Source: a virus (taxonomy: Duplodnaviria > Caudoviricetes). Taken from it: 64,000 bases of DNA. The DNA lies in the IMG/VR virus record IMGVR_UViG_3300005345_000001, positions 16,507 to 80,506 of that record. One strand, 5' to 3'. The translations under genes and the position numbers were made by a program. The notes under the pieces were generated by a model that had not been told where the DNA came from, did not search any database, and worked only from the letters and a program-made list of their open reading frames with translations. Below are positions 778 to 32,908 of the stretch, in pieces (the first letter of the stretch is position 1; each line of letters begins with the position of its first letter).

Positions 778-1266
778 ATGGGTCTAGCAATGCGCAAGTT
801 CTATTCCAAAGAGATCCCAGAGTCACCGGTCTATGTAGCGGGCCATCCGCTGGTCTTTGATGTACTTGAAACTGAAGATGCCGCGCTCATAGCCGAATTA
901 GATAAGTGCGTCGCCCGTGGTGTAGGTGGGGTGATGACTATTACCCAGGAACAGTTCGAGGTGGAGGTAAAAAAAAAGAGCAACGGACAATTATCAAACG
1001 GCAGCTTGAGGCCAAAGCAGCAGAGACAAGAGTTGTCAGCAATGCAATTGGCCGGTCTGCGTGCTGTGGAGGGCGCCGGTAAAGTTAGTCAGTTTGCCAG
1101 GCCACAACAGCCCACCGCCAACCCTCACAACCGACACGGCTTACCAGTTAGCGGCAATGCGCCTGGCCCTATCCCGGCGCTGCCAGACCCAATCGAGGTT
1201 CCTACCCCGGAATCTTTCGGGCCCATCTCCAAGCCCCCGACTGCCAAGGCTAAGGATGTCCAATGA
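778..1266 (+). CDS. Hypothetical virion-module protein containing an A9 slippery run
   Basis: ATG at 778 (or 791) just after the terminator. The stop overlaps the next start (ATGA 1263-1266). A9 run at 969-977. Confidence 0.7.
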   Translation: MGLAMRKFYSKEIPESPVYVAGHPLVFDVLETEDAALIAELDKCVARGVGGVMTITQEQFEVEVKKKSNGQLSNGSLRPKQQRQELSAMQLAGLRAVEGAGKVSQFARPQQPTANPHNRHGLPVSGNAPGPIPALPDPIEVPTPESFGPISKPPTAKAKDVQ

Positions 1267-2279
1267 TCGAGTACCAACCTTTCGCGCTCTTCTTGTCCAC
1301 CGTCCAACGGCTGGTGGCTCCCGAAGATTTGGGCGAGGAGTTGACTCCGTTCTTTCGCGATCAAGTCGGTAACGCCCTGGCCGATATCCAGACCCTCATC
1401 CCTTGGTTTAGGAACTTCAACGTCAATGCCTATACCAAGGAAGACGTGGAAGAGTTCTGTTCGGCTAGCATCTTCACCGGGCCGGTGGGTAAAATTACCC
1501 AACTCTTCGCCTATACCCCAGGTCGGGAGTGCAAGAAGTACTACTACAAACGGGTCAGCACCTCTGCCTTGGATTGTTGGCTGGAGCGGCAGCGCTGTGT
1601 CCAATGCACGTTCACCCCGCCGCCGACCCATATTTATGATACTCCCTATTGCAACTACGTCATCTTGGGAGAAGTCGCCTGTAATCCCCCTTATCTCAAT
1701 GGAACCGAGGACACCTGCCGATTCACCAGTCTGGACGACGACAATCGAATATTTGCAGTTGGACCAGATTACCGCGTTTACGCTGCCCCTCGATTCCCCT
1801 GTGGCTACAGCCTGTTCATGCAATGGCAGGGGATTCGGCGCAAATGGGAGAACATTGATCTAGTTCCAGTTGACCAACAACTGCGTGAAGCGGTGGTCAA
1901 TTATGTCGAGCACAAGATTGCCCTCAAGGAGCGCAACTCAGTCTCCATGACCGAGTATTACTCGCTCTATGCGGTCAACCTGCGCATGCTCAAATACCGC
2001 TATCACGACGAGCAAGACACTGAACTGGAGCGGGACTGCACTTCGGCCATCGAGCAGCTGATGTCAGCCTTCGCGCCGGCTTACGGACTGTATGGGGTGG
2101 GGGCCGGTCTGGGGGTTGGCGATTATATCTACAGTATCTCTGGTGGAGGCATCATCCAGGTCTATACGGGCGCGACACCACCAACTACCCCGGATGACCC
2201 CACCCAAGCGGCTGTCTTTTATCCTACGGGCGGAGGCTCCATCCAGCAGTGGGACATTCCAAGTCAGACCTGGGTATGA
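1263..2279 (+). CDS. Putative head-tail connector/adaptor protein
   Basis: 338 aa, coupled by ATGA overlaps at both ends, located between capsid and tail genes. The function is a positional inference. Confidence 0.45.
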   Translation: MIEYQPFALFLSTVQRLVAPEDLGEELTPFFRDQVGNALADIQTLIPWFRNFNVNAYTKEDVEEFCSASIFTGPVGKITQLFAYTPGRECKKYYYKRVSTSALDCWLERQRCVQCTFTPPPTHIYDTPYCNYVILGEVACNPPYLNGTEDTCRFTSLDDDNRIFAVGPDYRVYAAPRFPCGYSLFMQWQGIRRKWENIDLVPVDQQLREAVVNYVEHKIALKERNSVSMTEYYSLYAVNLRMLKYRYHDEQDTELERDCTSAIEQLMSAFAPAYGLYGVGAGLGVGDYIYSISGGGIIQVYTGATPPTTPDDPTQAAVFYPTGGGSIQQWDIPSQTWV

Positions 2280-3787
2280 GAGCGCTGCTGGCCATCCTCT
2301 TCATGTTGCTGGCGATTATGTCGCAGGCCGCCACATTCGTGTCGGACGGTTCGGACACCGATGTGCAGGCCAAGATTGATTCTGCCTCCGATGGGGACAC
2401 TGTCACTATTCCGGTCGGCAACTTTGACTGGGACACCACAGTCACCATTTCTGGCAAAGGCATCCATCTGAAGGGGGTGGATGGTGGCTGGATATCAGGC
2501 TGGAGCCGGTCCAGCGTTCTCATCGACATCGGACTCAAAACTTTCACCACTCAGACTGGGCTCAAGTGGACCGTTGGAGATGAAATTGGTGCCTACTACG
2601 TCGCCAATGGCGCGCCCTTAAGCATGTTCGGCACCGTGGATAGCTATTCAGGTTCTACCTTGGTCATCAATGTCACCATTGCCAATGGCACTACGACGAA
2701 AGCAGCCTGGGTCTTTGTCCATGCTGGCACTAGCTCAGTGACGTTTAACACCGGAACTTCCACTGGCTTAAGCATTACCGAAGACACCACCCACAACGTT
2801 GAGGTAAGCCAGTTACATTTCATCGGTGGAGTGTTCCAGACCAGTGGCGCCATGATTAAGTGGAACAATACTTCCGGTGGAAAACCCATCCTGTGGCATG
2901 ACAACCGCATTACTGGCACTGAGAACGACATAGCGTTGCGGGTGGAAACCAACCGTGGGGTCATCTGGAGCAATTACTGGGACAGCACTTTCTACGGTGG
3001 CGAAGGCGACAACAACGCCGCGCCAGACTGCTCCATGATGCAGCATAAGCCGGCTAGCCTGACGACTTCCTGGACCACAGCCGACACGCTTGGCCAAAAC
3101 GATACCGATGGCACTGGCAACCTCTACATCGAAGACAGCGTGTGGGTGGGGACGTCGCTGCAAAGCTTTGACGTCGATGAGATGGCCCGCACCGTTATCC
3201 GCCATTCCCTGATGGACAATAGCGGTGGGACCAGTCACGGCCGGGATACTGGCACTGGCCTGCGCCACTTCCAGTTCTATAAGAATACCACTTTGTTCGA
3301 TAACCTCGGCGTGGACAGCTACCCACTGGACTACCTGTTCTTCATCCGAGGCGGTACCGGTATCGTCTGTAGCAATTCTATCGAGGACATTACCTCCGGC
3401 CAATGGGGGAACAAGACTGAGATGAAACAGCAGATCCAGGCGTTACGCCGTTCATGCGCAAACGATTGCTGTTGGAACAGTGGCTGGCCACAGCCTCAAC
3501 AGATTGGCCAAAGCCATAATGGCAGTTCGATGTTCAACGACCCGCTCTATTACTGGCAAAACAGTGCCGCCATGGCCATTGCTAATGTCGATTATGCCCC
3601 TGACGGGTGCGGTGGTGGCCCGGCCATGAGCACCTATTGTATCGAAGGCCGAGATTTCACTAATGCCACCAAGACTGGTTGGGCACCCTACACTTACCCA
3701 CACACCCTGCGAGGCGCCCAAGCCCCAGAAGGGCCGGCAGTGCTCGCCCAAAAGGTAAGAGCTTTGAAAATACCACTACGAAGATGA
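2276..3787 (+). CDS. Signal-peptide-bearing right-handed beta-helix (pectate-lyase-like) protein
   Basis: True start is ATG 2276 (MRALLAILFMLLAIMSQA|A). DVQAKIDSASDGDTVTIPVG-type N-terminus typical of beta-helix proteins, and a C-terminal PYTYPH motif. Confidence 0.7.
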   Translation: MRALLAILFMLLAIMSQAATFVSDGSDTDVQAKIDSASDGDTVTIPVGNFDWDTTVTISGKGIHLKGVDGGWISGWSRSSVLIDIGLKTFTTQTGLKWTVGDEIGAYYVANGAPLSMFGTVDSYSGSTLVINVTIANGTTTKAAWVFVHAGTSSVTFNTGTSTGLSITEDTTHNVEVSQLHFIGGVFQTSGAMIKWNNTSGGKPILWHDNRITGTENDIALRVETNRGVIWSNYWDSTFYGGEGDNNAAPDCSMMQHKPASLTTSWTTADTLGQNDTDGTGNLYIEDSVWVGTSLQSFDVDEMARTVIRHSLMDNSGGTSHGRDTGTGLRHFQFYKNTTLFDNLGVDSYPLDYLFFIRGGTGIVCSNSIEDITSGQWGNKTEMKQQIQALRRSCANDCCWNSGWPQPQQIGQSHNGSSMFNDPLYYWQNSAAMAIANVDYAPDGCGGGPAMSTYCIEGRDFTNATKTGWAPYTYPHTLRGAQAPEGPAVLAQKVRALKIPLRR

Positions 3788-6700
3788 GAAGATTACTCGC
3801 AGCTGTTTGTGCGCTACTTTGTTTTGCTAGCGTGCTGTTTGGGGCCAACCCGTCCTATACATCATTCCTTGGAACCAACGGAATCATCATCACGTCCAAT
3901 CCTCCACAGGGCTTTATCATCATCGACGGCAGGGCGTTGACCAATGGCTTTGTGTCAGGTGTCGGAGATCAGGTTTGGACCAATGATGTAGGGGTAATTT
4001 ACACGATTGTTGACCCATCTCGAATTCAGTTCCTGACCAACAGAATTTTTGGCCGACTGATTCGGGCTGATGGGACCAACACTGTCTTTGGGAGCAATGC
4101 GTTGCCCCCTAATGTTGGAGCTGTAAATAGCGTAGCCATAGGTAGTGACGCATTGAGCCGTTCTAGTGGTGGCGAAAATGTGGCCATTGGACATAGAGCT
4201 TTGGCTACTAATTCTAGTGGTCTAAACAACGTGGCGGTTGGGTATAGGGCAATGGAGTTCAACGATATTAGTGAGGACAATGTGGCGTTAGGATATTCCG
4301 CCCTTCGCGAATTCACAACTGGTCATCAGAATACGGCTCTTGGGGCAGCATCAATGGTCCATTTGACCACTTCGTATGATGGTACAGCGGTTGGATATGG
4401 AGCCATGGATAAACTGGAGGGCATTGGAAATACTGCTCTTGGATCTAGGGCCATTAGTGGTGGTCTAGGTGGAGGCAATTACAACTTGGTCGCGGGGAAT
4501 CAGGCGATGTTTAACAGCGACCGATTGGAGGGAAATGTAGCACTTGGAGGATTTGCACTCACTGGCATTGACGACCTGACAAACGTGGTTGCTATCGGAT
4601 ATCAAGCCACGGCCATCTCCGGTGGATTAACCAACGCCGTTGGGATTGGGGCCCTTACTCGCATCACCGCAGACAACCAGATGATGCTTGGGACCAACAT
4701 CACCCGGTATGTGTTCAGGAATGTGGATTATACATTCCCATCGGCCAATGGGGCAGCGGGAACTGCCCTCACCAACAATGGCGCCGGCATCTTGGGTTGG
4801 GGAACCGTGGCTGGTAGCGGTGGCACGGTGGCATTTTCGGACCTGATATGGACCAACGACAATGGCACGCTCAAGCCAGTCGCTTTCCCGACCAACGTGC
4901 TGTTACGGGTGAACGTCCCTGATAACGGAACCGGCACCAATTACTACTTCGACAGTCGGGTTTACCGGACAAATGCAACCAGCAAATTGTTCGCTATCTA
5001 CAACGGCGGCAGCAACGCCGTCACGGTCGGCCCCTATGGCGGGCTGTTTATGGGTCGCGGTAATCCCACCCCATTCCCAGGCGTAGTCCTTTACGGCATA
5101 TACGATACGGCTCTTGGCGAGACCAACCAGCAGGAGATTTTTACCATGAGCCAGAATAGCGCTGTGGGCTACAACGGCGCCGCCGACCTGATCGTCGACA
5201 CCAATTATGGGGCCATAATCCTGTTCGCCAATAAGGAGGGCGGAACCAAGTTTAGCCGGTTTGCCATCCAGGCTGGGGCCGGAATCAACCCACAAGATTT
5301 TAACACCTTCTCGATGCAGGCGCTGGTCGATGGGGCGACCTACTTCCAGGTGGACCCCAACTTCACACTACTTACCCCGACCAATTATTTGTTCAGCAGC
5401 AGCGTTCGTATCACCAACATCCATACCCTGCTGTCGCTCCAAAACAGCAATTTCCCGGTGCTTGAAGTGGACGGTGTGGGCGATCTAAGACTAATCAAGA
5501 AGATCCCTTACCAGTGGCCCAGCGCCCAAGGTGCGGCCGGCACAGCTCTGACCAACAATGGTTCTGGCATTCTGGGATGGGGCGCAGTGGCTTCGGGCGG
5601 CGGTCTTACCTTTGCCGACCTTATCTGGACCAACAACACCGATACCATCTATCCCTACGTCCATAGTAACCGCATCCATTTCGGCACCTCTGCCACCAAT
5701 GGAGCCCGCCTTAATCTTGAGTGGTATGCGCCGCGTCGGTCATTTCGTGTTGGTCAGCTATCCACGGGCATTGGAAGCGATTATTGGGATGTGACAAACC
5801 TTGGCATAGGGTCGGTGTCATTTGGTTCCAACAACCTTGCTGGTGGATATATGAGCGCAGTGTTGAGTGGGTACGGAAACATAATCCCGACCAATTACAT
5901 CTATTCTGTAATCGTTGGAGGTACTGAGAACTTATTTGCTGAATCCAGTGCAAGTGGGCGCAACATAATTGGAGGAGGCAGTAAGAACCAAATGGACCCA
6001 GGCGCAAGCAATTGCGTTATTGTAGGCGGATTTAGGAATAGGATTCTCACTGATGCGTTTATGAGTTCCATGGTTGGTGGAGCGGACAATATTTCTCGCA
6101 TGCGCTATGGCTCTATTGGTGGAGGATCTGGAAACGAGACAAGGGGCATCGGTTCTGTGGTTGGAGGTGGGTTAAACAATATTTCAGGAGAGTCAACGGT
6201 GGATGGTTTAACCACGATTGGTGGTGGTAGCCAAAACAGTATACATGAGGATTATGGAACCATTGGTGGTGGTTTTGGCAATTTCCTTCAAAGTTCTGCG
6301 TTGTATGGAACTATTGGTGGTGGCCGGGGTAATGTGTCCGATGCAATCAGCGGCACCATTGCCGGAGGCTCTCTGAATAACATTGATGGCTTTGCCCAGT
6401 ATGGAGTTATTTCTGGTGGCTACACTAATTTTATTGGCAACCCAGGAGCGGGTGGTTCCCACTTTAGTTTCATCCCTGGTGGTGTTTCCAACAAGATAAG
6501 TGGCGCTATAATGGCCGCAGCCATTGGATCATTTCAGACGAACACCTTAGATAAAACCATCCTGCTTGGCACCACCAACAACAACCGGGTGATGGTCTCC
6601 ACGACCAATCTGAATTTGCTGGAGGACATGACCATCCTGATGACCAATGGCGCTGGAGCCGGGAAGGTGCTCACCTCTGATGCGAACGGCAAGGGAACCT

Positions 6701-9700
6701 GGGGTACTGCCAGTGCGGGCAGCGGAACCTTCACGAACATATTCAGCCCAACTCTCTCTAACGCCACTATCAAGCCGTTGGTGGTGGGGCTTGGAACGGC
6801 GGCTGGCGCGACTAATACCACTGGCGAGATTAGGGGCATTGAGGCCGGTGCAAACATCACGATCACGCCCAATGGCAGCAACTACGTCATCTCGTCCACT
6901 GCCAATTTCGTGTCCTTAAGCACAACCAATGCGACGAGCAAACCGCTGACAAACAGCTATGCGTCAGGCGTCCTGACGATGTTTGGCATTGAACAGGGTA
7001 GTGGCCAAGCTATCACGGTTAACGCTTCCAACATTGTCGTTGGGATCGATTGGGCACAGGTGGCAAGCACCACCAATGTCGTTGGAGTGTCTAATTGGGT
7101 GAATTCCGTGTCCAACTACGTCACGGCAGCTACCAATTCGGCCTCGGTTACCAACTGGATTACACAACGCCAACCCGCCAATGCTGTTCTTTCTAATCTG
7201 GTTGGCACGGTAGCAAAGAACGTCACTAATGTGGTCTCTCTCAGCACGACGAACGCGACAAGTAAGCCGCTCACAAATAGCTATACGTCGGGTGTGCTGA
7301 CGATTTTCGGAATTGAACAGGGCAGCGGTCAGGCCATCACGATGAACGCTTCCAACATCTTAGTCGCGATAGATTGGGCGCAGACGGCAAGCACGACTAA
7401 CGTGGTGGGAGTGTCCAACTGGGTGAACTCGGTTTCCAATTATGTCACGGCTGCCACAAACAGCGCCAGCGTCACCAATTGGATCACCCAACGCCAACCC
7501 GCCAGCCAAACCCTTACCAACCTTTCTGGCACTGGCGCCATTACCAACGTGTTCAGTGCGTCGCTTAGCAACGCTACGATGAAACCGGTGGTGTTCCCGT
7601 CTGCCAACAACTTCGCCACTAATTATACGGGCAGATTCTTTGGGTTGGAGCAGGGAGCTAACGTCACTTTGACCCCAAATGGGAGCAACATCGTTATCGC
7701 TTCGTCTGGTAGCGGAGGGTCTAGCCTTACGACCAATGCGAACCAATTCGGCGCTTCGGTGGAGTTAACCATCAAAGATGCACCGTTGCTGACCAATGCG
7801 ATTCATTATGGTGCTGGATTCTTGGGCTCTTTCACCAACGTCTGGACTGCGCCTCAGTTCCTGGGTACCAATGTGGTATTTGATGGTACCAATTCGTCTT
7901 GGTTCCAATTCAATCCAGCGACTGGACCACAGACCAACTACGTATTCACCAACATCCAAGCTGGCCAGACGATTGTGGTAAAAACATACGTCACCAACGG
8001 GACCACTGTCAGGCTATGGGCCAACACGACTGAAATCCCGGCTAGTTGGTATATCGGCAACAACGGAAGTGCGGCCAACATCAACAGCAATGCGCCCTCA
8101 GTGGTTTATGTCAGCCGAGACTCTCTGGTGCCAGCCACCAACGTCTTGATCTGGACCCGAGACTTCGATGTCACAGCGGGATATGGGTTAATCTATGCCA
8201 CCAATTTCGTAGCAGGCATCGTGACCCAACAACTCCAGCAGATATTCCAACCTGGCAATGCGACACTCACCAATCTTGCTGGAACAGGAGCCGTCACCAA
8301 CCTGTTTAGCCCGACTCTTTCCAACGGGACGATCAAGCCACTGGTGGTCGGTGTCGGAACGGCAGCGGGCGCTACCAACGTGACCGGAGAGATTCGCGGG
8401 CTTGAGGCTGGGGCTAACATAACCATCACTCCAAACGGAAGTAACTATGTCATCGCTTCTACAGGTGGTGGTGGGGTGGCGTTATCAGATTTGGTTTGGA
8501 CCAATCGCGTCGGTGAATTGCTTCCAAACGCTTATCCAACCAACACTATCCTAAGCCCAACCAATGCGGGATTTAGGACTAATTTCTATTTTGGCAGCAC
8601 CGAAACCAGAGCTGGTGGAACCAACAAAGTATTCAGGGTCTATAACGGAACAAACAACGCACTTACCGTAGGTGATGCTGGTATATTCATCGGGTCAGCT
8701 AACGGCACTCCTATCAATGGGCAAGCGATAAATGCCATTTATGACACATCTCTTGGGGATGCGCCAAGCAAGGCAATCAGCCTAACATCTCAAAATAGCG
8801 CCGTTGGATTTAATTCATCGGCAGTCACCAGCGTTAGCACTAATTTTGCTAACACTGTATTGACCGCTGATCGAGATGGCACTGGGTTCATAAATTTCAC
8901 TCAAGTTATTGGACAAGATGCAACTTGGCTTAATTTCGATATGTATGTTCTGGCTCAGGATGCCGGAGGCACCATTATTAGACCATTCCAGTTTGACCCC
9001 GACTTCAGCCTGAGTCCGACAAGTTACCTATTTAATAGCACCATGCGGATTACCAACACGCACACTTTGATGTCGCTTCAGAATAGTAATACCCCGATGT
9101 TTGAGGTTAATGGCATCGGTGACCTGAAACTACTGAAACGCATCCCATACTCATGGCCAAATGCGCAGGGAGCGGCGCAAACGGTGTTAACCAATGATGG
9201 GTCCGGCAATTTAGGTTGGGGCGCCGTATCAGCCAGTGGTGGGTCTGTAACATTTGCGGATATCGTATGGACCAATAAATCTGGAACCCTTTACCCAATC
9301 GCATACCCGACCAATATAATTTTCAATCCAACTAACACTGTATCAGCCGCTGAACTAGCACGAGCAACCAATTTCCTATTTCAGACCAGCACTCGAAGGA
9401 TCGGCGGAACCAATGTGCTGTTTGCGGTCTTTAACGGCGGGGCCAGCGCACTGGTCGTTGGCGATCAAGGAATAATGATTGGCTCGACCAACTATATACC
9501 TGTCCCTCAGGCGGCAATTGATATCGCGTACGATACGGCCTTCGGGGTTGATAGTCCCGAGAAATCAGTCCTACTGACAACCTACAACAGCGTGGTTGGC
9601 TATAGCGGAAATGCCGAGATGCACGTCAGCACAAACTACGGTGATTTTAATGTGACCGCTAATAAGGAAGGCAATGGATTCGTGGAGTATTTCTTCAGAG

Positions 9701-10635
9701 CAGGAGGTGCAGGAACCGCTGTGGATTATAAGAATTTTGATGCCTATGTTCTGGTTCAGGATGAAGGAGCAACCATTATAACGCCTTACCAAATCGATCC
9801 CGATTTCAGTCTGAGTCCTACCGGATACATCTTCGGTAGCACGATGCGCATTACCAATACCCATACGCTGATGAGCTTGCAGAATAGCAATACGCCGATG
9901 TTCGAAGTCAACGGCATTGGCGATCTGAAACTGCTCAAGCGCGTGGCTTATTCCTGGCCCAGTGCTCAGGGAGCCGCCCAAACTGTTCTTACCAATGATG
10001 GGTCGGGCAACCTTGGGTGGGGAGCAGTAGCAGCTAGCGGTGGAGGGCTGGCCACAAACGCCAATCAATTTGGGGCCAATACTACGCTCTCGATCAAGGA
10101 GGGCGTGCTTCTGACAAACATTATGCTCTATCCATCCAACCTGACCAGTCCAGCCTCGATTGCGACTGCCAGCGTTGGAAGTATGACTAACCTGATAGAG
10201 TGGAGACAGACCAATGGCGCATTGGCGCTACTGATCAGCTCCAATGGTCTTTATAACATATCCGTTCCCCTTCTCCACTCCAACGCCGTTGCATTTAGGA
10301 CCAACAATATCGACTTCAAATTGGCTCAGTGGCAGACGTTTAGTAACGCACTCAAAACCAATTTGGTCCTCCAGCTAACCAACTGTAATGATGGCGTCAC
10401 ACATACGTTAAATGCTTTCGGTTCTGGAAGACTTGGGAATGGAACAACCAATGCATGGCAATTGCTTTGCACCGTCGCCTCTGGTAACACCATCTATTGG
10501 CCTCCAGGATCTACCAATGGAAATTTCGATGTGCTGGTTAACAGCAATCAGGTGGTTACGTTCACATTCCAGCAAGTGTTCAACACCAACATATTCGCAT
10601 CCTATCTGGTGCGAGAGGGGATAGGGGCAAACTGA
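3784..10635 (+). CDS. Giant repetitive fibre/adhesin-like protein (2284 aa) with signal peptide
   Basis: Start ATG 3784 (MRRLLAAVCALLCFASVLFG). NVAIG/NVALG repeats (about 4110-4680), IGGG..N repeats (about 5800-6520), and multiple internal module duplications. Very rich in T, N, G and S. Confidence 0.8.
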   Translation: MRRLLAAVCALLCFASVLFGANPSYTSFLGTNGIIITSNPPQGFIIIDGRALTNGFVSGVGDQVWTNDVGVIYTIVDPSRIQFLTNRIFGRLIRADGTNTVFGSNALPPNVGAVNSVAIGSDALSRSSGGENVAIGHRALATNSSGLNNVAVGYRAMEFNDISEDNVALGYSALREFTTGHQNTALGAASMVHLTTSYDGTAVGYGAMDKLEGIGNTALGSRAISGGLGGGNYNLVAGNQAMFNSDRLEGNVALGGFALTGIDDLTNVVAIGYQATAISGGLTNAVGIGALTRITADNQMMLGTNITRYVFRNVDYTFPSANGAAGTALTNNGAGILGWGTVAGSGGTVAFSDLIWTNDNGTLKPVAFPTNVLLRVNVPDNGTGTNYYFDSRVYRTNATSKLFAIYNGGSNAVTVGPYGGLFMGRGNPTPFPGVVLYGIYDTALGETNQQEIFTMSQNSAVGYNGAADLIVDTNYGAIILFANKEGGTKFSRFAIQAGAGINPQDFNTFSMQALVDGATYFQVDPNFTLLTPTNYLFSSSVRITNIHTLLSLQNSNFPVLEVDGVGDLRLIKKIPYQWPSAQGAAGTALTNNGSGILGWGAVASGGGLTFADLIWTNNTDTIYPYVHSNRIHFGTSATNGARLNLEWYAPRRSFRVGQLSTGIGSDYWDVTNLGIGSVSFGSNNLAGGYMSAVLSGYGNIIPTNYIYSVIVGGTENLFAESSASGRNIIGGGSKNQMDPGASNCVIVGGFRNRILTDAFMSSMVGGADNISRMRYGSIGGGSGNETRGIGSVVGGGLNNISGESTVDGLTTIGGGSQNSIHEDYGTIGGGFGNFLQSSALYGTIGGGRGNVSDAISGTIAGGSLNNIDGFAQYGVISGGYTNFIGNPGAGGSHFSFIPGGVSNKISGAIMAAAIGSFQTNTLDKTILLGTTNNNRVMVSTTNLNLLEDMTILMTNGAGAGKVLTSDANGKGTWGTASAGSGTFTNIFSPTLSNATIKPLVVGLGTAAGATNTTGEIRGIEAGANITITPNGSNYVISSTANFVSLSTTNATSKPLTNSYASGVLTMFGIEQGSGQAITVNASNIVVGIDWAQVASTTNVVGVSNWVNSVSNYVTAATNSASVTNWITQRQPANAVLSNLVGTVAKNVTNVVSLSTTNATSKPLTNSYTSGVLTIFGIEQGSGQAITMNASNILVAIDWAQTASTTNVVGVSNWVNSVSNYVTAATNSASVTNWITQRQPASQTLTNLSGTGAITNVFSASLSNATMKPVVFPSANNFATNYTGRFFGLEQGANVTLTPNGSNIVIASSGSGGSSLTTNANQFGASVELTIKDAPLLTNAIHYGAGFLGSFTNVWTAPQFLGTNVVFDGTNSSWFQFNPATGPQTNYVFTNIQAGQTIVVKTYVTNGTTVRLWANTTEIPASWYIGNNGSAANINSNAPSVVYVSRDSLVPATNVLIWTRDFDVTAGYGLIYATNFVAGIVTQQLQQIFQPGNATLTNLAGTGAVTNLFSPTLSNGTIKPLVVGVGTAAGATNVTGEIRGLEAGANITITPNGSNYVIASTGGGGVALSDLVWTNRVGELLPNAYPTNTILSPTNAGFRTNFYFGSTETRAGGTNKVFRVYNGTNNALTVGDAGIFIGSANGTPINGQAINAIYDTSLGDAPSKAISLTSQNSAVGFNSSAVTSVSTNFANTVLTADRDGTGFINFTQVIGQDATWLNFDMYVLAQDAGGTIIRPFQFDPDFSLSPTSYLFNSTMRITNTHTLMSLQNSNTPMFEVNGIGDLKLLKRIPYSWPNAQGAAQTVLTNDGSGNLGWGAVSASGGSVTFADIVWTNKSGTLYPIAYPTNIIFNPTNTVSAAELARATNFLFQTSTRRIGGTNVLFAVFNGGASALVVGDQGIMIGSTNYIPVPQAAIDIAYDTAFGVDSPEKSVLLTTYNSVVGYSGNAEMHVSTNYGDFNVTANKEGNGFVEYFFRAGGAGTAVDYKNFDAYVLVQDEGATIITPYQIDPDFSLSPTGYIFGSTMRITNTHTLMSLQNSNTPMFEVNGIGDLKLLKRVAYSWPSAQGAAQTVLTNDGSGNLGWGAVAASGGGLATNANQFGANTTLSIKEGVLLTNIMLYPSNLTSPASIATASVGSMTNLIEWRQTNGALALLISSNGLYNISVPLLHSNAVAFRTNNIDFKLAQWQTFSNALKTNLVLQLTNCNDGVTHTLNAFGSGRLGNGTTNAWQLLCTVASGNTIYWPPGSTNGNFDVLVNSNQVVTFTFQQVFNTNIFASYLVREGIGAN
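6910..7503 (+). repeat. Two 270-nt in-frame copies (6910-7179 and 7234-7503) of a 90-aa module
   Basis: 84 of 90 residues are identical (VSLSTTNATSKPLTNSY...TNWITQRQPA), period 324 nt. Confidence 0.95.
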
Positions 10636-11348
10636 TGAAGTGGCTATTATTACTCTTAAGTTGTTTGGGCTGTTGCGGCCAACAGGCTACGGTCGGCCTG
10701 TCCGTTCGTGCGCTAGGCTCATCGGCCAACACTGCCAACGATACCAGCGAAGCGACCGGCTCTTATACGCCACAGATCGGCACTGAACTGATCGCCATCG
10801 TCATCAACACGAAAGCTGCCACCCCCGACCAGCCTAACTTGGTTGGCAATGGCTTAACCTGGACGGAGCTTTTCGATACCAATTATCTAACGGATCATCG
10901 GCTCACGATTTGGTATGCCAAGTGCGGGTCGGGAGCCTTTGCCGGTCCATTGACAGCCGATACTGGCGCCACCTCTCAGACCGGCTGGGCCTTGGCTGTG
11001 GTGGAGGTGAGCGGGGCAGTGATCACCGGGGTCAATGGCCTGACCGGATTGCGTCAAAATGTTAACGCAAACGTCTCGGCTGGCACCACCATTACGGCGA
11101 CCTTTGCTGCACTTGGCAAACGGACGCTATGCATTGGGCTAGTGGGCGGTAACCTCAACGGAACGGCGAATACTGCGGAAGCTGGCTGGACAGAGATTGT
11201 TGATGTGGCCTTCAACACCCCAGCCACAGAGCTAACCATCGTATATCAGGCAAAGAATGCCGATACGACCTGTGCGGTTTCCAATGCCGGCGCATTCAGT
11301 GGGTGCATTGTAGGCATCGAGATGGTTCAGGTTGGTAATTTCCCATGA
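10635..11348 (+). CDS. Exported beta-rich hypothetical protein
   Basis: MKWLLLLLSCLGCCG signal-like N-terminus; coupled to both neighbours by overlapping stop/start codons. Confidence 0.7.
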   Translation: MKWLLLLLSCLGCCGQQATVGLSVRALGSSANTANDTSEATGSYTPQIGTELIAIVINTKAATPDQPNLVGNGLTWTELFDTNYLTDHRLTIWYAKCGSGAFAGPLTADTGATSQTGWALAVVEVSGAVITGVNGLTGLRQNVNANVSAGTTITATFAALGKRTLCIGLVGGNLNGTANTAEAGWTEIVDVAFNTPATELTIVYQAKNADTTCAVSNAGAFSGCIVGIEMVQVGNFP

Positions 11349-12160
11349 GAATACTACTGGCATTACTGTTGAGTGTGGTTGCTGCCAAAGCTGATTGGTT
11401 CGGGACTGGTAATCTAAACACCTATTTCTGCGGTCCGAACATGACCAACTCAATGAATGTGCTGAGCAACAGCATCACCATTGCCGTTTGGCTCAGAATT
11501 CGAGATACTGGTACTGGGCTGGAACAAAAGAATGTGTTCTTTTCCAAAGGCCGATTGGACTTCACTGCCAGCTGTAATTATCTGCTGCGCATTTCTGGCA
11601 GCAAATTCGAATTCGATTATACCGACCAAGTTGGTGGGCTGCACACGTATCAGTCCTCTTCGACGATTATCTGGACCAATCGCCTCCGATTCGTTGCACT
11701 TACATTCACCTACGGAACGGCTGGATCATCAATGCAAATGTATTTGGATGGCGCCCCCATCTCAGGATCGTGGACCAGTGGGAACGGAAACAGTAATAGC
11801 CTCCCAAACCAGCACGAATTTAGCCTTTCAGGACCCACGGCGCAGGTGGTTGGAGGTGGGATTTTAATGGGTGAACAAGGCCCGGTCATGGCCTGGCGCA
11901 CAAATCTTAGTAGCACTCAAATTCAGATGCTTTATAAAACACGTGTAGCTGGGTTGCCTTATGTTATCTATCCACAGCATTGCGTGCTAAACATTGATTG
12001 GAGCAATATTCGGTATGGTCAAGACATGGAGTCTAGTCAACGAATTCCGAGTCGTGTCCCTTGGGGTCAGTTCGTGTCTAACGCTATCCCACGATTCGGT
12101 CAAAGCAGCAGCGGCAATCCGCTCGGAAGCCAGTTAATGTCATTTTGGCCAAACGAATAA
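11345..12160 (+). CDS. LamG/concanavalin-A-like lectin-domain protein with signal peptide
   Basis: MRILLALLLSVVAAKA|D signal; ITIAVWLR...FVALTFT...MQMYLDG pattern of LamG jelly-roll domains. Confidence 0.75.
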   Translation: MRILLALLLSVVAAKADWFGTGNLNTYFCGPNMTNSMNVLSNSITIAVWLRIRDTGTGLEQKNVFFSKGRLDFTASCNYLLRISGSKFEFDYTDQVGGLHTYQSSSTIIWTNRLRFVALTFTYGTAGSSMQMYLDGAPISGSWTSGNGNSNSLPNQHEFSLSGPTAQVVGGGILMGEQGPVMAWRTNLSSTQIQMLYKTRVAGLPYVIYPQHCVLNIDWSNIRYGQDMESSQRIPSRVPWGQFVSNAIPRFGQSSSGNPLGSQLMSFWPNE

Positions 12161-12170
12161 CATCATCCAA

Positions 12171-12827
12171 ATGCCATCACCCGTTTCACCCACCCAATTC
12201 TGTGACGCCGTTCCAGCGGCCAACGCCGACCTGTGCGTCAAGATGTCCAAATTCCTGGGCATCCCACAGCTGCTCTGTGATTTGTTCGGCTGGATGCTCA
12301 ATACCGACCGATCCATCAGCCAGACGTTTAAGGAGGAGGTGGCCACCTTTAGCACCCCAACGGGTATGATTGCTTACTCACTTACCCTAAATATGGGGCC
12401 GGGCTGGATCTTGGCCGATGGCAGCGATATCTCCCGCACGACCTACGCCAATCTCTTCGCCGCCATCGGCACCCGCTACGGCGTTGGGGACGGCAGCACC
12501 ACCTTCGGATTACCCGATTTACGTGGCCGCTCTCCAATTGGCGCCGGTCAAGGCACCGGATTATCCAATCGCGACATCAATACCGTCAACGTGGGCGAAG
12601 AGCGCCATACCCAAACGGAGGCCGAATTAGCCACCCATCGCCACGATTACAACACTACCGACAGCCAGCAAATCCTGGTGCAACAGGCAGTGGGAAAGAT
12701 CAACGACATCAACCGAAGCGGGTCGCTTGATTATGCTTTTGCCGATCCAATGGAGACCACGGGTGACAGTGAGCCCTTCAACGTCATTCACCCATGTATT
12801 ATCGCTTATCCGTTTATCAAGATCTAA
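12171..12827 (+). CDS. Phage tail collar domain protein
   Basis: GWILADGSDISRTTYANLFAAIGTRYGVGDGSTTFGLPDLRGRSPIGAG is the canonical tail-collar motif. Confidence 0.92.
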   Translation: MPSPVSPTQFCDAVPAANADLCVKMSKFLGIPQLLCDLFGWMLNTDRSISQTFKEEVATFSTPTGMIAYSLTLNMGPGWILADGSDISRTTYANLFAAIGTRYGVGDGSTTFGLPDLRGRSPIGAGQGTGLSNRDINTVNVGEERHTQTEAELATHRHDYNTTDSQQILVQQAVGKINDINRSGSLDYAFADPMETTGDSEPFNVIHPCIIAYPFIKI

Positions 12828-12838: not shown

Positions 12839-14986
12839 ATGTCAGACTTCAAGACGATCAAGCTAAGACCCATGACGGGCGTGTTCGACACGCTCTCAAG
12901 CGCAGATGAGATTGGCTTTGGTAATTGGCGCGTAGTTAAAAACGCTGTTACCCGCTCCACTCGAAACCGTAATCGGTCTGGTGGCTGGCGTCGCCTGTTC
13001 GCTGACGACGATCCATACAACAACCAGGACCTTCACGACCAGTTAACGACCCGGCTGGGCTACTACGATTCTTTCGAAGAGCACGTCATGGGTGGTGGAG
13101 GCCTGCATGGCTACATCTACGCCTACTTCACTGGAGTCTATCAGGAGCCCACCACCTTCGCCTATCCTCCAGCATCGGGTCCATTTTCTCCGGTTTATGT
13201 CGGGGATTTCCCGGAGATGCTCTATGGCCCGTGCACAATCTTCTACCCATACGTGGGGTATCCTTATCGGTTCATCCAGCGCCCTGATTTGCCCGACAGC
13301 CTGACGACGGGCGCCCCGTTCAACTACCTGGATTCCTACGTGTACACATCCTGCCAGGTGGAGTATCCAGGGGATCTAGTTGCGGGCTACCCATACGGGC
13401 CGCAGACGCCCGTCTATGACCCCCTCTTTGCCTACGACCACGAGTATTGCGGAGATTATCTGTGGAGCCGGCCTGGATGCCGGGAAGCTATCACGATGTT
13501 AACCGAAGTGGTCACCGCCCAGGGCCGCAAACTGGTGGCCGCAACCATGTCCAGAGTTTATGAATTCAATCAATCAGCAGGGAATTGGCGGATATTGGCC
13601 GATGGACTGGGTAATTCCGGATACACGACCGAACAGTGCGGGTGCAACAGCGTTCGAGGAATGGCCGCTACCATTGGAGAATACCTTGTTTTCACCAATA
13701 ACTTCGATCCCCCATTTATCTACCAACTTGGAAGCGATTCTTCTGGCTGCGGGCTTCAGTCACTCCAACCGATCACAGACCTGGCAGTGCTTGGTATTAC
13801 CCGAGCTGGCGGAGTGGTTACCTGGAAGGGATTCGTAATCTTCTTCGACATCACCGAAGCCGGCGTGCGCAGCGGCAGTACGATTATTTGGAGTGATCTG
13901 GAGGATCCCAATTCATTCATCGAAAGTGATACCAGTTTTGCCGGCCGGGCCACCACAGCGGTTGGAGAGACTATCCTGGCTGCCGCGCCCATCGGAAACT
14001 GGCTCATCCTTTACACCGATAAATCAATCATCCGGGTGTCCCTGGTCGGTGGGGAAGACGTGTTTAACTTCGAGGAGATTTATCGGGGTGGCAACGCTCT
14101 GCGCTACAAGTATTCCCTGGTAAACGCTGGCGACGCCCACATTTATATGGGCGAGAGTGACATTTACATGTTCACTCAGTTCGATACCCGGCCGATTAAC
14201 GTGGAGTGGATCACTAGGGCCGCCGGCTTTGTCTATAACGGAATAGCTGAGGACGACGCCACCTATCAACGCATCAACAACGATGCCTGCAATCTGGTCA
14301 CAGGCGGTTGGAACGAGAACACCCGCGAAGCATTCTTCTCTTGGCCAACCGGAGACAACATCTGTCCGGACGTCACGTTACGGCTTAACCTCAAATTCAG
14401 CGCCGCTGACTTCATCGACCACGGCTTCACGGCTTTCTTGACCTTCCACCGGGACCAGCGGCCCACGGTGGGTGAATGGATGGAGACCCTGGGCATCTGT
14501 CCACGTGGAAGCAAGGTGGCCACCGGCATCAAGGACGGGCCCGTGTGCCCAGATCCTAATCGGATAATAGAGCAGCCTGCGGATCCGGATGCGGAGCCCG
14601 AACCCGAGCCAGAGCCAGAGCCAGAAGACTGCGGGACGGATTGTTCCCAGATGCCCGTAACGCTTTACGCCCGGGATCTGATGCCAATGTATCAGGCGGG
14701 GCCGGAAGCGCTCGGTTGCCCAGCCTGGGACGGATCACTGGTGAATGCCGGAAGCCCTCCGTGCCAGTGGTTGAATTGGTGTTCTGGCCCAGTCGGTTTT
14801 GGTGGCATTGGTGTCATACTGTCAGGCGCGCCGGGTAACTGGTGGATCAGCATCTATCGAGGGGCCTCATTCGCTTCGTATCAGCTTACGCCACAGGCCA
14901 ATTGTCCGTATGGCACCTATAATTTGGCGGTTTCAACCTGGATAGACGGGCCTGCGGCTAGCTCAGTAGAAGTGACGATCGTTTGA
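12839..14986 (+). CDS. Tail nozzle/stabilisation protein (P22 gp10/T7 gp12-like), N-terminal part plus a Cys-rich extension
   Basis: 715 aa beta-rich protein with TIIWSDLEDP and ILAAAPIGNWLILYTDKSIIRV segments typical of podovirus nozzle proteins. (EP)n linker at about 14590-14630. Confidence 0.6.
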   Translation: MSDFKTIKLRPMTGVFDTLSSADEIGFGNWRVVKNAVTRSTRNRNRSGGWRRLFADDDPYNNQDLHDQLTTRLGYYDSFEEHVMGGGGLHGYIYAYFTGVYQEPTTFAYPPASGPFSPVYVGDFPEMLYGPCTIFYPYVGYPYRFIQRPDLPDSLTTGAPFNYLDSYVYTSCQVEYPGDLVAGYPYGPQTPVYDPLFAYDHEYCGDYLWSRPGCREAITMLTEVVTAQGRKLVAATMSRVYEFNQSAGNWRILADGLGNSGYTTEQCGCNSVRGMAATIGEYLVFTNNFDPPFIYQLGSDSSGCGLQSLQPITDLAVLGITRAGGVVTWKGFVIFFDITEAGVRSGSTIIWSDLEDPNSFIESDTSFAGRATTAVGETILAAAPIGNWLILYTDKSIIRVSLVGGEDVFNFEEIYRGGNALRYKYSLVNAGDAHIYMGESDIYMFTQFDTRPINVEWITRAAGFVYNGIAEDDATYQRINNDACNLVTGGWNENTREAFFSWPTGDNICPDVTLRLNLKFSAADFIDHGFTAFLTFHRDQRPTVGEWMETLGICPRGSKVATGIKDGPVCPDPNRIIEQPADPDAEPEPEPEPEPEDCGTDCSQMPVTLYARDLMPMYQAGPEALGCPAWDGSLVNAGSPPCQWLNWCSGPVGFGGIGVILSGAPGNWWISIYRGASFASYQLTPQANCPYGTYNLAVSTWIDGPAASSVEVTIV

Positions 14987-17976: not shown

Positions 17977-18326
17977 TCCATAGGCACGACAAGTGCATCG
18001 GCATAACGCTCTGGAAATGGGGCCATTTCCAAATCGAATTATGGTGCGTCCCATCTATGGAGACAATCGAGTCACATTGTCATCCATCGATTGACTCTAC
18101 GCTCATCTTCCTGTTTGGAAGAATGTTCGGTCGAATTGGCGAAAGACAGGGCTGGGTGAGCAATGCCGATTGCCTTCGCAGATTCGCTATTCCGGCCGGG
18201 ATAGAGCACTCAGCTACAACTGCTAAATTCACTGCCTTCCTTAACATAGAAAGATGGCGCGCTGGCAGCAATGTCACGAGTGCATCGGTTGATTTTCGGG
18301 TTTCCAAGTCTCGTTGCGACGAATGA
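17973..18326 (+). CDS. Cupin-fold protein
   Basis: GTG start overlapping the upstream TGA; motif 1 ESHCHPSID and motif 2 IPAGIEHSA. Confidence 0.6.
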   Translation: MIHRHDKCIGITLWKWGHFQIELWCVPSMETIESHCHPSIDSTLIFLFGRMFGRIGERQGWVSNADCLRRFAIPAGIEHSATTAKFTAFLNIERWRAGSNVTSASVDFRVSKSRCDE

Positions 18327-18798
18327 ATCCAATAGTCCCTTTCGACACGCCGTATATCATGGCAAGCTCTCGATAACTACGCCTGTTCGCTCTTATGGCA
18401 ATCACTTGTTTCCAGGTAAGTTTAGAGTTGGGACAAAGCTCCCCAGTTTTGCCGTTAAAATGTGTCTTCCATCGACCTTTCGAAATTGCATCCCGGAGAT
18501 TTGAGCTCTGGTTCCCAGTCCACAGATGATCTGGATTCACGCAGTCACCTCTGTCTCCATCTGGACAATTGTGGTGGACCTGATGTCCTTCTGGAATTGG
18601 CCCCACATTGAGGATGTAGCTTATGCGATGAACCCCCATGGTTCCACGGCCGACACCAATGGCCCAATGTCGGTTGTGCTTCCCGCCATCAAAGAGCCAA
18701 CAGCCGTTGGTTTTGGTCACACGCCGCCAGAACTTGGCTGGGATAGTAGTATTAAGCCCTTGAGCAGCGAGGTAGTCGGAAGTAATATTTGGCGGCAT
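18274..18798 (-). CDS. HNH homing endonuclease
   Basis: GCWLFDG...VHRISY...QVHHNCPDGDRGDCVNPDHLWTGNQSSNLRD, plus a C-terminal HTH. Confidence 0.9.
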   Translation of the reverse strand: MPPNITSDYLAAQGLNTTIPAKFWRRVTKTNGCWLFDGGKHNRHWAIGVGRGTMGVHRISYILNVGPIPEGHQVHHNCPDGDRGDCVNPDHLWTGNQSSNLRDAISKGRWKTHFNGKTGELCPNSKLTWKQVIAIRANRRSYRELAMIYGVSKGTIGFIRRNETWKPENQPMHS

Positions 18799-18889: not shown

Positions 18890-20143
18890 ATTAACACCAA
18901 AGTCCACATCCTGGCCAGTTGCCCAAATCCAAAGCTCATCGATTACACAACTCTTGTCTTTAAGACTCTGCGCGTTGGATTTCCCACTGCTGACGTCGTG
19001 GTGTGGATGAATAAATTGGGACAAGTGGAGGAGTCCAAGGTGTCCCAAATCTGCGTGGACAACGACTACGACGCACAGGTCTGTGACTATGCTCACCACG
19101 AATGGATCCAGATGCTGGCCACCACCGAGAAGCAACCATTCTGGATATCTGATACAGATATTTTGTATTACGAAAATATCGAGGAGCTGAAGCCTGATTC
19201 TGCTATAGCCGGCTGGCGCATCCCGGAGTGGAAGGACGAATTCACCCAGTGCATCACGCGGGCGCGTATCCATACCTGCCTGATGCACATCAACCCGTTG
19301 ACGCTAGCCAGCGCAATCGCCAGGTATAAGGAGAGCTTCAATCTAATGGATGACATCAATCCATTGCCGAACCTATTTGCTCCGATCTCTGTCCCATTTG
19401 GTAGACTGACCTATTTCTATGACGTCTGCGGGCTGCTCTATAACGCTGTCGGCGGTGAAGCGTTCTCCGATGAGATCAAAGAGAGGTGGTTCCACTTTAA
19501 CTTTGGGTCCATATCAGACCGCGTATTGCCACTGATCAAAGACGGCGATAAGATGGCAGCCGCCAGGGAGATGGTATTGCTAAACCCGCAGCTTGGACGT
19601 GGTGCCTGGAGGTTGCAGGAGGAATACTATGCCAACCGCCAAGTGATTTACGACGGCAAGAAGATAGAGGACACGATGAGCCAGGAGGATATGGAGCTAG
19701 CCAGGAAGTGGAACGTGGAGCTTTGCTGCGGCAATCAGGAGGCGATGCAGTTTTGCGATCTGTATCACCGATACGTGCATGGGATCGACGATCTCGTAGA
19801 CGAAATGCAGGACGGTCGACCGACGATGAGCAAGGAACAGATCATAGACTTGTTCTTGCAGGCACTGATCCTCTACAACACGCCGTTCTTCGTTACCTAT
19901 CGAAACCTACTGTTCCCGGCAATTATACAGGTGACCAACATGTATCAGGATTCTGTCTCCTGGGAACGGTCGCCGAAAAGTCATTTACGCAAGATAGCCG
20001 ATGTGCTTCGCACTTGCGGTGGCGAAGTCTATTTCATGGTCGCGCTGATTACCGGAGGACCAGAGCACATGAATAGGATGTCGAAATTGATCAGGGAACG
20101 TGATTTTCTCTCCCAGCACGATCAGGATGGAAACCCTCTATGA
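18890..20143 (+). CDS. Fusion of a GT-A-like (DxD) N-domain and an isoprenoid-synthase-like (DDxxD) C-domain
   Basis: SDTDILYY and VHGIDDLVDEMQD motifs. The frame is open upstream of the called GTG (18998) back to 18866; candidate ATT start at 18890. Confidence 0.55.
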   Translation: MNTKVHILASCPNPKLIDYTTLVFKTLRVGFPTADVVVWMNKLGQVEESKVSQICVDNDYDAQVCDYAHHEWIQMLATTEKQPFWISDTDILYYENIEELKPDSAIAGWRIPEWKDEFTQCITRARIHTCLMHINPLTLASAIARYKESFNLMDDINPLPNLFAPISVPFGRLTYFYDVCGLLYNAVGGEAFSDEIKERWFHFNFGSISDRVLPLIKDGDKMAAAREMVLLNPQLGRGAWRLQEEYYANRQVIYDGKKIEDTMSQEDMELARKWNVELCCGNQEAMQFCDLYHRYVHGIDDLVDEMQDGRPTMSKEQIIDLFLQALILYNTPFFVTYRNLLFPAIIQVTNMYQDSVSWERSPKSHLRKIADVLRTCGGEVYFMVALITGGPEHMNRMSKLIRERDFLSQHDQDGNPL

Positions 20144-31241: not shown

Positions 31242-31982
31242 GTGGCTAATTTAGCGTTCACCATTTCTTCCTACAGATTGACGTCGTTTGTCCAGCTTGG
31301 GTTGGCTCAATTCAGACAATTATCACCCGAAAGCCCGCTGCTTGTGTCAGATGACAGGTCTCATGAGTCTGATGAGATTAAGCGGATATCGGAACAATAC
31401 GGCGCCAATTATAAGTGTTCGCGTGTTCGACGATCTCATTTCGGCGGCGATTTTCAGGGCCTCGTCAATGCGCTGGCTTTCGCAGAGGCGGCTGGCGCGG
31501 ACGTTGGGATTAAAGTTTCCCAGCGGTTCATCTTCCGGCGACCAGAATCTATCGAAGTCATTAAGCGGGCATTCGCTGACCCCAATATCTGCGTGGCTAC
31601 ACCTGGCCAGCCAGCCAAAGGCGGGGCGTTCGCCAAATTCACCACGCTCTCTGATATTGTGGCAATTCGGGTGGGCAGCATAACCCCAGAGGATTTGCTC
31701 CAAATGTACCGGGGCCGGCTGATACGGGAGAAGGTGCCGTGGGCTTCCTTCATCGAGTGCGCCGTCGATGACCTTCATCACAGCAAGTTCCCGGGCAGGA
31801 CGGTGAAGATGCCTGAGCTAACCAATCCGGTCGGAGACCCCATTTATTTACGCCGCTACCAAGCCACCGAACAGCAGTATCGCAACCTGGCCCTGACCCA
31901 TGGCCTGAACGGTATCTATCCCACCAACGAATGGGGCCAGATCGAAGGCCGTCGTTACATGTGCAGGCCGGTGGTAGTTTAA
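31242..31982 (+). CDS. Glycosyltransferase (GT-A/GT2-like)
   Basis: Probable GTG start at 31242 (MANLAFTISSY...LLVSDDRS); GT2-like N-terminal strand and DD motif. Confidence 0.55.
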   Translation: MANLAFTISSYRLTSFVQLGLAQFRQLSPESPLLVSDDRSHESDEIKRISEQYGANYKCSRVRRSHFGGDFQGLVNALAFAEAAGADVGIKVSQRFIFRRPESIEVIKRAFADPNICVATPGQPAKGGAFAKFTTLSDIVAIRVGSITPEDLLQMYRGRLIREKVPWASFIECAVDDLHHSKFPGRTVKMPELTNPVGDPIYLRRYQATEQQYRNLALTHGLNGIYPTNEWGQIEGRRYMCRPVVV

Positions 31983-32350
31983 GGTCGCTTCACCAGGCGC
32001 ACAAAGAACTTCCCCGTCCAAGGCAGCCCTGGACCGCTGGTGTAAACCACCGTGCTAGTGGCATCGGTCCACTGGGTCATGTTGGTGCTCCACTGTGGCA
32101 CCCAGCCCGGCTCGATTGGTGTCGGCCAGTAAGCGGCAAAGACGAGCGGCTCCTGCGGTTGAGCCACTGTGAGCACGGGACCAGAGGCAGCCGTGAATGG
32201 CGTGGCTGATGCCAAACGCTGCGCGACAAATGATTTAGGTGCAATCGCTACAGGCCGGTCGCTGGGTGGCGGCACTGGTAACTTTTTGCGTGGGGTAGTT
32301 TGGCAACCAATAAGGACGAACAGAGCCAGCGGAACAATAAAGGTTTTCAT
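31979..32350 (-). CDS. Small lipoprotein
   Basis: MKTFIVPLALFVLIG|C lipobox; QWSTNMTQW...KFFVR motif. Confidence 0.7.
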   Translation of the reverse strand: MKTFIVPLALFVLIGCQTTPRKKLPVPPPSDRPVAIAPKSFVAQRLASATPFTAASGPVLTVAQPQEPLVFAAYWPTPIEPGWVPQWSTNMTQWTDATSTVVYTSGPGLPWTGKFFVRLVKRP

Positions 32351-32353: not shown

Positions 32354-32908
32354 TCAATTGAAGCGTGCGAACTCACCGAACAGTTCCTTAGCCTTCGCGC
32401 AGTAAGCCGCGTGGGCATCGGCTGAACTGTGGAAGGTCCCAAGCGGTATCCTGACTCCATTAACGCAAATAGAAGATCGGAATGTTTTTCCGTCCGTGTA
32501 TACTCCCTTTGGAAGCGCATGCTTTCGGGCCCGATTGGATACTTTGTTCTGAGCGTTCTGGCTGATTGTTGCCAGACGAAGATTGGACCACTTGTTGTTA
32601 AATGGATTGCCGTCTTTATGGTCCGGAATCATCCCCGACGGAATGATAACGCCCATCAGCATGAATGCTATCCTGGCCGCGTTAATCTCATGCGGCCTAC
32701 CACTTTTAGTTATAGAAATCCTGATGGCATGACGACGGCCTCTACAATAGTGCTGGCTGCCTGCTATCTTTCCAGCTTGTCGGCAGTTGGTTTTAACCCA
32801 GCATGCTATAGTCGGAAAGTGGTGTCGTGGGCGCTCCTTCCAATGGCAGACGCCAGTCTCCGGATCATACGTTAGGCATTCAACAATATACTCAATGGAC
32901 AGACTCAT
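32354..32908 (-). CDS. HNH-AP2 homing endonuclease
   Basis: LTYDPETG...DHKDGNPFNNKWSNLRLAT...KGVY...LGTFHSSADAHAAY; ATGA-coupled to the radical SAM gene. Confidence 0.93.
   Translation of the reverse strand: MSLSIEYIVECLTYDPETGVCHWKERPRHHFPTIACWVKTNCRQAGKIAGSQHYCRGRRHAIRISITKSGRPHEINAARIAFMLMGVIIPSGMIPDHKDGNPFNNKWSNLRLATISQNAQNKVSNRARKHALPKGVYTDGKTFRSSICVNGVRIPLGTFHSSADAHAAYCAKAKELFGEFARFN

Follow-up and report, generated by a model that had tools for sequence, protein, structure and literature searches.

A mobile cassette of four genes with Sec-type signal peptides between the virion genes of a soil-type phage

The genome of a soil-type phage, IMG/VR record IMGVR_UViG_3300005345_000001, carries a 9.9-kb mobile cassette of four coupled genes, all of which begin with Sec-type signal peptides and stand between virion genes (Table 1). 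The stretch analyzed here, called the window, comprises 64,000 nucleotides (bases 16507-80506) of this 80,506-base record, which has 110-base direct terminal repeats and is rated complete; positions below are those of the window unless a contig is named. The cassette encodes a beta-helix protein (gene 1), a giant mosaic fiber (gene 2), and two beta-sandwich proteins (genes 3 and 4). Textbook assembly of tailed phages is wholly cytoplasmic. An earlier reading of the letters alone (the sequence-only reading) noticed the four signals and offered two explanations, either that the appendages are exported, matured in the periplasm, and added to the virion, or that the late operon builds a host-surface adhesin coat. 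We hypothesize instead, at a probability of roughly 0.45, that the cassette is a horizontally mobile set of four Sec-exported glycan-targeting proteins that act free or envelope-bound at and after lysis. Glycan factors of this kind, released at lysis or held at the envelope, fit at least gene 1 better than either of the earlier options.

Signal Peptides on Four Coupled Genes

On direct reading, each of the four proteins starts with Met and one or two Lys/Arg residues, followed by 10-15 uncharged hydrophobic residues and by small ones at -3/-1. This is the canonical form for Sec and signal peptidase I, for which we required a positive n-region, an uncharged h-region of ~7-15 residues, and small neutral residues at -3 and -1. 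The start of each gene overlaps the preceding stop, as ATGA at 2276, 3784, and 11345 and as TGATG at 10635, which bears out the translational coupling proposed earlier, and a gap of 10 bases separates gene 4 from the next gene (12171). Longer upstream starts (GTG 2249, TTG 3679) fall within the preceding genes and are not common to the homologs. A screen with our own crude n/h/c rule, which is not a trained predictor, flags 11 of the 101 open reading frames (ORFs) of the complete genome, including one false positive with a Rossmann fold; at this rate, adjacency of all four cassette genes by chance is unlikely.

The signals are kept in nearly all homologs of the four families (88/104 for gene 1, 8/8 for gene 2, about 25/27 for gene 3, and 12/12 full-length homologs for gene 4), so that the objection foreseen in the sequence-only reading, that homologs might lack them, falls away. 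For three of the families, conservation is lower in the signal region than over the first 42 mature residues (0.23 vs. 0.58, 0.54 vs. 0.72, and 0.47 vs. 0.58). The signals keep their form while their sequence drifts, even between gene 1 copies that are 92% identical, and the mature starts stay fixed. Conserved cysteines are paired in gene 1 (399/445), gene 4 (77/213), and gene 3 (four cysteines). Because this conservation pattern and the paired cysteines match what is expected of working Sec signals, the four proteins are very probably exported. A Tat signal was considered for the fiber and set aside, since its twin Arg is Lys-Arg in homologs and the n-region is short.

A Beta-Helix Protein With Bacterial Relatives

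Gene 1 is modeled as a right-handed parallel beta-helix (AlphaFold2 (AF2) model, predicted local distance difference test (pLDDT) score 83), and by fold it most resembles phage tailspikes, PL6 lyases, and GH110, in keeping with the beta-helix label it had been given from its sequence. The leading tailspike depolymerases among these matches are phi297 gp61, LKA1 gp49, AP22 gp54, and the Klebsiella K1 lyase (Foldseek E 5e-8 to 1e-5, with low TM-scores of 0.2-0.4). These tailspikes are likewise right-handed beta-helices and act on surface glycans, and the model marks gene 1 as a putative polysaccharide depolymerase. Virion tailspikes, however, lack a signal and bind the particle through an N-terminal domain, whereas gene 1 carries a signal but not that domain. 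Neither alignment nor model places a particle-binding domain ahead of its helix: the phage protein aligns with stand-alone cellular enzymes from the first mature residues, and in the model residues 20-22 form a strand and the helix coils start at residue 42. Searches with tblastn against 50,697 phage records returned no match to gene 1, and a beta-helix profile found no match among the sequences of solved structures.

The 104 homologs of gene 1 match over its full length (E 1e-135 to 1e-30, 30-49% identity, 90-98% coverage), and 88 of them have a strongly hydrophobic window in the first 40 residues followed by a conserved mature start. Relatives occur at 227 cellular loci in soil Verrucomicrobiota, Acidobacteriota, and others, the best being in a Chthoniobacteraceae metagenome-assembled genome (39%). 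At the four cellular loci examined, the neighbors are GT2/GT4 transferases, a Polysacc_synt flippase, an asparagine-synthase-type amidotransferase, and a UDP-glucose dehydrogenase. Gene 1 is a member of a family of secreted beta-helix proteins whose genes soil bacteria harbor within clusters for polysaccharide synthesis. The phage copy lies outside any such cluster, between virion genes.

A Giant Mosaic Fiber and Two Beta-Sandwich Proteins

In gene 2, the signal is followed by a conserved N-terminal domain of ~35 residues and by adhesin-head-like repeats (about residues 95-350). A repeat map of the distal part shows three copies of a module of ~280 amino acids, repeated modules of ~100 amino acids, and a distinct C-terminal domain, which looks like a soluble beta domain. 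Eight fibers have the signal and the next ~35 residues in common and are wholly different further on, and this combination of a conserved N-terminal domain with exchangeable distal modules is the build of a fiber. Only residues 97-295 match tail-fiber or structural proteins of cultured roseophages, pelagiphages, and cyanophages (32-39% identity), and thousands of large cellular proteins contain these repeats too. Gene 2 has no PHROG match, no Pfam family at E <= 0.01, and no sequence match among solved structures.

The composition of gene 2 (3784-10635) is unusual in its Thr-Asn dipeptides, of which there are 85 vs. 24.7 +/- 4.5 in shuffles. Periplasmic N-glycosylation was considered and rejected, as the 46 N-x-S/T sequons are not enriched over shuffles (42.9 +/- 5.6). 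There is one Asp/Glu-x-Asn-x-Ser/Thr site only, and no genes for STT3, Wzy_C, DsbA, or signal peptidase S26 were found in the complete genome.

Gene 3 is modeled as two jelly-roll beta-sandwiches (AF2, pLDDT 87.6), and its best structural matches, at a middling Z of 7.8, are TNF/C1q-like lectin domains; in the ESM Atlas it falls only in unnamed clusters. Nearly all of its 27 homologs have a signal ending in Cys-x-Gly/Ala before a conserved Gln, a site that would fit signal peptidase I. A lipoprotein reading was suggested by the lipobox-like Leu-Leu-Ser-Cys in the present copy and was discarded as a property of the family, since a lipobox occurs in only some of the homologs. Gene 4 matches PF13385 with 32 bits against a cut-off of 27.6, and the same family is recorded on most of its homologs, so the earlier LamG label holds. 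Its 12 homologs are 56-71% identical, and every full-length one has a signal with the same cleavage context. A LamG profile found no match among the sequences of solved structures, and none of the four cassette genes has a match in PHROGs.

Insertion and Mobility of the Cassette

The sequence-only reading placed the four genes in the tail-fiber slot. This slot is not a fixed one: the cassette is a mobile insertion that is missing at this junction in six related IMG/VR contigs (L001, L004, L005, L006, L007, and L009). In these contigs the homolog of the upstream flanking gene (1263-2279) runs directly into the tail-collar gene, which is followed by the nozzle-like gene. The nearest relative, L007, is colinear with the window minus the 9.9 kb (capsid 94%, collar 90%, and nozzle about 86% identity), and past its nozzle genes it carries a signal-less module (L007:14549-20897) encoding proteins of 105 and 447 amino acids and a 1564-residue Ser/Ala/Val-rich fiber. 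The cassette shows one hallmark of a moron, since the genes on either side of it are neighbors in relatives.

Elsewhere the cassette occupies other sites. In a close relative represented by L095/L096 (integrase 77% and a 2901-residue giant protein 78% identical), it consists of a beta-helix variant, an 834-residue fiber, and a LamG protein. There it stands at the end of the integrase-side operon, after a radical-SAM gene and before a small lipoprotein gene that is the homolog of 31979-32350, so that the gene 1 variant adjoins a radical-SAM/methyltransferase/nucleotidyltransferase operon. The integrase-side operon of the present phage also encodes methyltransferases and a nucleotidyltransferase, and the exact position of the L095/L096 cassette is taken here by an HNH endonuclease gene (32354-32908). 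Because an HNH gene holds the relative's cassette place, there are hints of homing-type turnover of cassette slots. Fiber pieces lie at a third genome site in L092. The cassette is dispensable at the present site and moves among at least three genome sites. No cassette was found elsewhere in the related records holding L002-L005 and L007, which are 17-55% complete.

A Second Phage Lineage

An unrelated lineage with a different capsid (L010/L011) has copies of gene 1 (92% identity) and gene 4 (64%), and its run of signal-bearing proteins always comes after the head genes. A second fiber type in this lineage (L011:5241-9953, L101:7018-9993, and L103:6436-9933) begins with about 75 conserved coiled-coil-like residues, followed by a hydrophobic segment and an Ala/Gln site; this N-terminus looks like a signal anchor. 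In P0163, the mature start of the same fiber type stands behind a plain signal. The lineage-2 contig L107 (G809:26000-43866) also has a run of genes that, judged by eye, look like glycosyltransferases, together with small FN3-like signal proteins. With these glycosyltransferase-looking genes, both cassette-bearing lineages would pair exported proteins with sugar-related genes.

Comparison With Known Systems

Signal-bearing phage genes in or beside the tail-fiber region are familiar from Lom and Bor of lambda, Llp of T5, and Cor of phi80/N15. Like the cassette proteins, their products have Sec or lipoprotein signals; particles assemble without them, and they target the host envelope by blocking receptors or changing the surface. 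However, each is one small protein, often under a promoter of its own, whereas the cassette comprises four coupled genes over 9.9 kb, including a fiber of 2283 amino acids and a putative enzyme.

For gene 1 a close parallel is cellular. WceF of Pantoea stewartii is a signal-bearing, tailspike-like beta-helix enzyme whose gene accompanies an exopolysaccharide pathway and which trims glycan made by the cell itself (PMC7949094). The genomic context of WceF is like that of gene 1's cellular relatives. WceF uses a Tat signal, whereas gene 1 has a Sec-type signal, is phage-borne, and has no detectable sequence relation to WceF in the profile search of solved structures.

The layout of gene 2 recalls the mosaic adhesive trimer (MAT) fibers of Bdellovibrio bacteriovorus, in which a signal peptide and an adjoining conserved domain are followed by mosaic, phage-fiber-like trimers with varied tips (PMC10769870). 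MATs are encoded by chromosomal genes of a predator, many with an S74 chaperone-protease, whereas gene 2 lies in a phage virion operon and has no sequence match to a solved chain. Among phages, genes with Sec signals in Porphyromonas phages have been read as envelope or surface modifiers (PMC10367356), as have signal-bearing sortase substrates of huge phages (bioRxiv 10.64898/2026.10.24.761521). Neither paper names tail fibers or a depolymerase-fiber-lectin cassette, and the hosts and anchoring routes differ from those considered here.

Where the Cassette Proteins May Act

In the sequence of events that we propose, the cassette would be transcribed together with the late virion genes, the precursors would cross the inner membrane via the host Sec system, and host signal peptidase I would cut off the signal peptides. 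Folding with disulfide bonds would take place in the periplasm, and the products would act there and after lysis, free or bound to the envelope, rather than being incorporated during cytoplasmic particle assembly. Exopolysaccharide or capsule of the host itself would be cut by the beta-helix enzyme, and the same glycans at the surface would be bound by the fiber and both beta-sandwich proteins. By loosening the matrix and destroying or masking receptors on dying cells and cell debris, the four proteins may help progeny to escape. Several points favor a role outside the virion: gene 1 is related to cellular proteins and lacks an anchor domain, the cassette is dispensable and stands away from virion genes in a close relative, and lom, bor, llp, and cor set a precedent.

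Several observations weigh against this proposal. Gene 2 has the build of a classic receptor-binding protein, together with a repeat domain common to the tail fibers of cultured phages, and it is the only long fiber gene in the complete genome; as a free factor, a protein of 2283 amino acids would be costly. The cassette is translationally coupled to virion genes, and a sigma-70/terminator scan found no promoter or terminator bracketing it, although the host's promoter type may differ. The signal-less fiber module of L007 has no counterpart in the window genome, and in lineage 2 every long fiber-like protein seen has a signal or a membrane segment. It is conceivable, if doubtful, that the fiber, probably joined by both small binding proteins and perhaps by the enzyme, forms the host-recognition set of the virion, following Sec export, cleavage, and oxidative folding in the periplasm, and docks on finished particles at holin lesions or lysis or in the lysate. 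On the same somewhat unlikely account, the fibers here and in lineage 2 would be trimmed and disulfide-folded in the periplasm and would join a cytoplasm-built particle only when lysis mixes the compartments. The sole long fiber and the coupling to, and putative co-transcription with, virion genes would suit such appendages, and the conserved mature N-terminus of ~35 residues on otherwise differing fibers resembles a docking domain. The distribution of the cassette is complementary to that of the signal-less module of L007, the fiber stands between head and tail genes both here and in lineage 2, and a 78%-complete lineage-2 record shows no signal-less long fiber. With signals on all four partners, the partners would meet in one compartment. 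In vitro, tail-less or fiber-less particles of P22 and T4 take up purified spikes or fibers. The last ~45 residues of the product of the upstream flanking gene (2142-2276), an extension missing from four relatives (279-284 amino acids), also resemble the end of a small lineage-2 ORF directly upstream of the fibers (L010:4486-4755). However, the same motif occurs in L007 (7663-8679), a contig without the cassette. Particle and fiber would, moreover, be kept in separate compartments until lysis, gene 1 offers no anchor, and the two lineages have no evident tail protein in common on which the fibers could dock. Six relatives do without the cassette at this junction, and in another it sits away from virion genes. 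The literature yielded no description of tailed-phage fibers with signal peptides or assembled after export.

The N-termini could also belong to proteins that are not exported and act from the cytoplasmic side, as tethers that stay uncleaved in the inner membrane, as helices for assembly or targeting, or as relics from secreted cellular genes that the phage acquired. The second fiber type of lineage 2, with ~75 conserved residues before its hydrophobic segment, is more like a signal anchor than a plain signal and lends this some support, but we regard it as improbable given the small -3/-1 residues and fixed mature start in all four families, the divergence of signals that nevertheless keep their form even between 92%-identical copies, the conserved cysteine pairs, the plainly secreted cellular relatives of gene 1, and h-regions that are strongly hydrophobic, unlike signal-arrest-release domains. 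Slightly less credible still is lysogenic conversion, in which the host would display the fiber and lectin-like proteins as an adhesin coat that alters adhesion or blocks superinfection. An integrase is present, the L095/L096 cassette lies in a same-strand operon with the integrase and sugar or modification genes, MAT fibers likewise have a signal peptide, then a conserved domain and a mosaic fiber (PMC10769870), and huge phages encode signal-bearing sortase substrates for surface display (bioRxiv 10.64898/2026.10.24.761521). Yet every member of the cassette families lies on a phage-sized contig (<= 81 kb) and never on a chromosome-sized one. No prophage emerged when 185,579 species genomes were scanned by capsid alignment, and the LamG profile had no match in 802 genomes, 401 of Verrucomicrobiota and 401 of Bacteroidota. 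The cassette, moreover, sits inside the late operon here without a promoter of its own in the scan, and Pfam shows no device for export through the outer membrane, neither an autotransporter or YadA anchor nor a C-terminal domain of the type IX secretion system (T9SS).

Other Features of the Genome

The window encodes a large terminase (phrog_2), a tail-collar-domain protein (PF07484, 67.8 bits, which sustains the earlier label), a virion structural protein (phrog_3287), HNH endonucleases, and a tyrosine integrase, and with these genes the phage is tailed and probably temperate. Sequence searches place cultured phages very far from it, and no tRNA genes were found. The product of the upstream flanking gene, called a connector in the sequence-only reading, has no Pfam and no PHROG match.

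Table 1. Positions of the cassette genes, their neighbors, and the genes at the alternative cassette site (positions in the window).
Feature	Position	Strand	Basis or remark
Conserved virion-operon gene, 338 aa (amino acids); upstream flank	1263..2279	+	Synteny
Gene 1, predicted secreted right-handed beta-helix protein, 503 aa	2276..3787	+	Signal residues 1-18 (2276-2329), Ser-Gln-Ala/Ala site
Gene 2, mosaic fiber, 2283 aa	3784..10635	+	Signal residues 1-20 (3784-3843)
Gene 3, two jelly-roll beta-sandwiches, 237 aa	10635..11348	+	Signal ~residues 1-15 (10635-10679)
Gene 4, LamG/concanavalin-like, 271 aa	11345..12160	+	Signal residues 1-16 (11345-11392), Ala-Lys-Ala/Asp site
Tail-collar-domain protein without signal peptide; downstream flank	12171..12827	+	PF07484 and tail PHROGs; synteny
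Nozzle-like virion structural protein without signal peptide	12839..14986	+	phrog_3287; 85-86% identity to L007 counterpart
Small lipoprotein gene	31979..32350	-	Marks alternative cassette site
HNH endonuclease gene	32354..32908	-	Fills alternative cassette site

Just past the putative capsid gene, which ends at 713, a strong G+C-rich hairpin of 18 bp with a T-tail (734-773) is the sole convincing terminator-like site within the first 18 kb. Small ORFs with signal or lipoprotein-type N-termini occur beyond the cassette at 31979-32350(-), 45087-45428(+), and 47585-47935(-), and at L105:6548-6913(+); the ORF at 45087 resembles the FN3-type signal proteins that come after the lineage-2 fibers. 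There are four HNH endonuclease genes (18274-18798(-), 20138-20641(-), 30664-31239(-), and 32354-32908(-)).

Two features bear on the host. Shine-Dalgarno cores precede 13% of 76 genes, vs. 9.7% at random positions, and Gln directly follows several predicted cleavage sites (gene 3, 45087-45428, and 47585-47935). The scarcity of Shine-Dalgarno cores and the post-cleavage Gln are weak leads that may point to a Bacteroidota-like host or one from the Planctomycetes-Verrucomicrobia-Chlamydiae (PVC) group.

Implications for Phages of Soil Bacteria

A conserved, horizontally traded module joins a depolymerase-like enzyme, a giant mosaic fiber, and two lectin-like proteins, all with export signals that look functional. 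To this the present case adds that the module is dispensable, that it moves among at least three genome sites, and that one of its parts is drawn from bacterial exopolysaccharide loci. If the proteins are free factors, as we tentatively propose, phages deploy large secreted glycan-targeting kits at lysis; if the fibers are instead exported virion parts, some phages of uncultured soil bacteria complete their host-recognition apparatus outside the cytoplasm. Either reading would alter the annotation of fibers and "tail" genes in metagenomic phages, and with it the prediction of host range.

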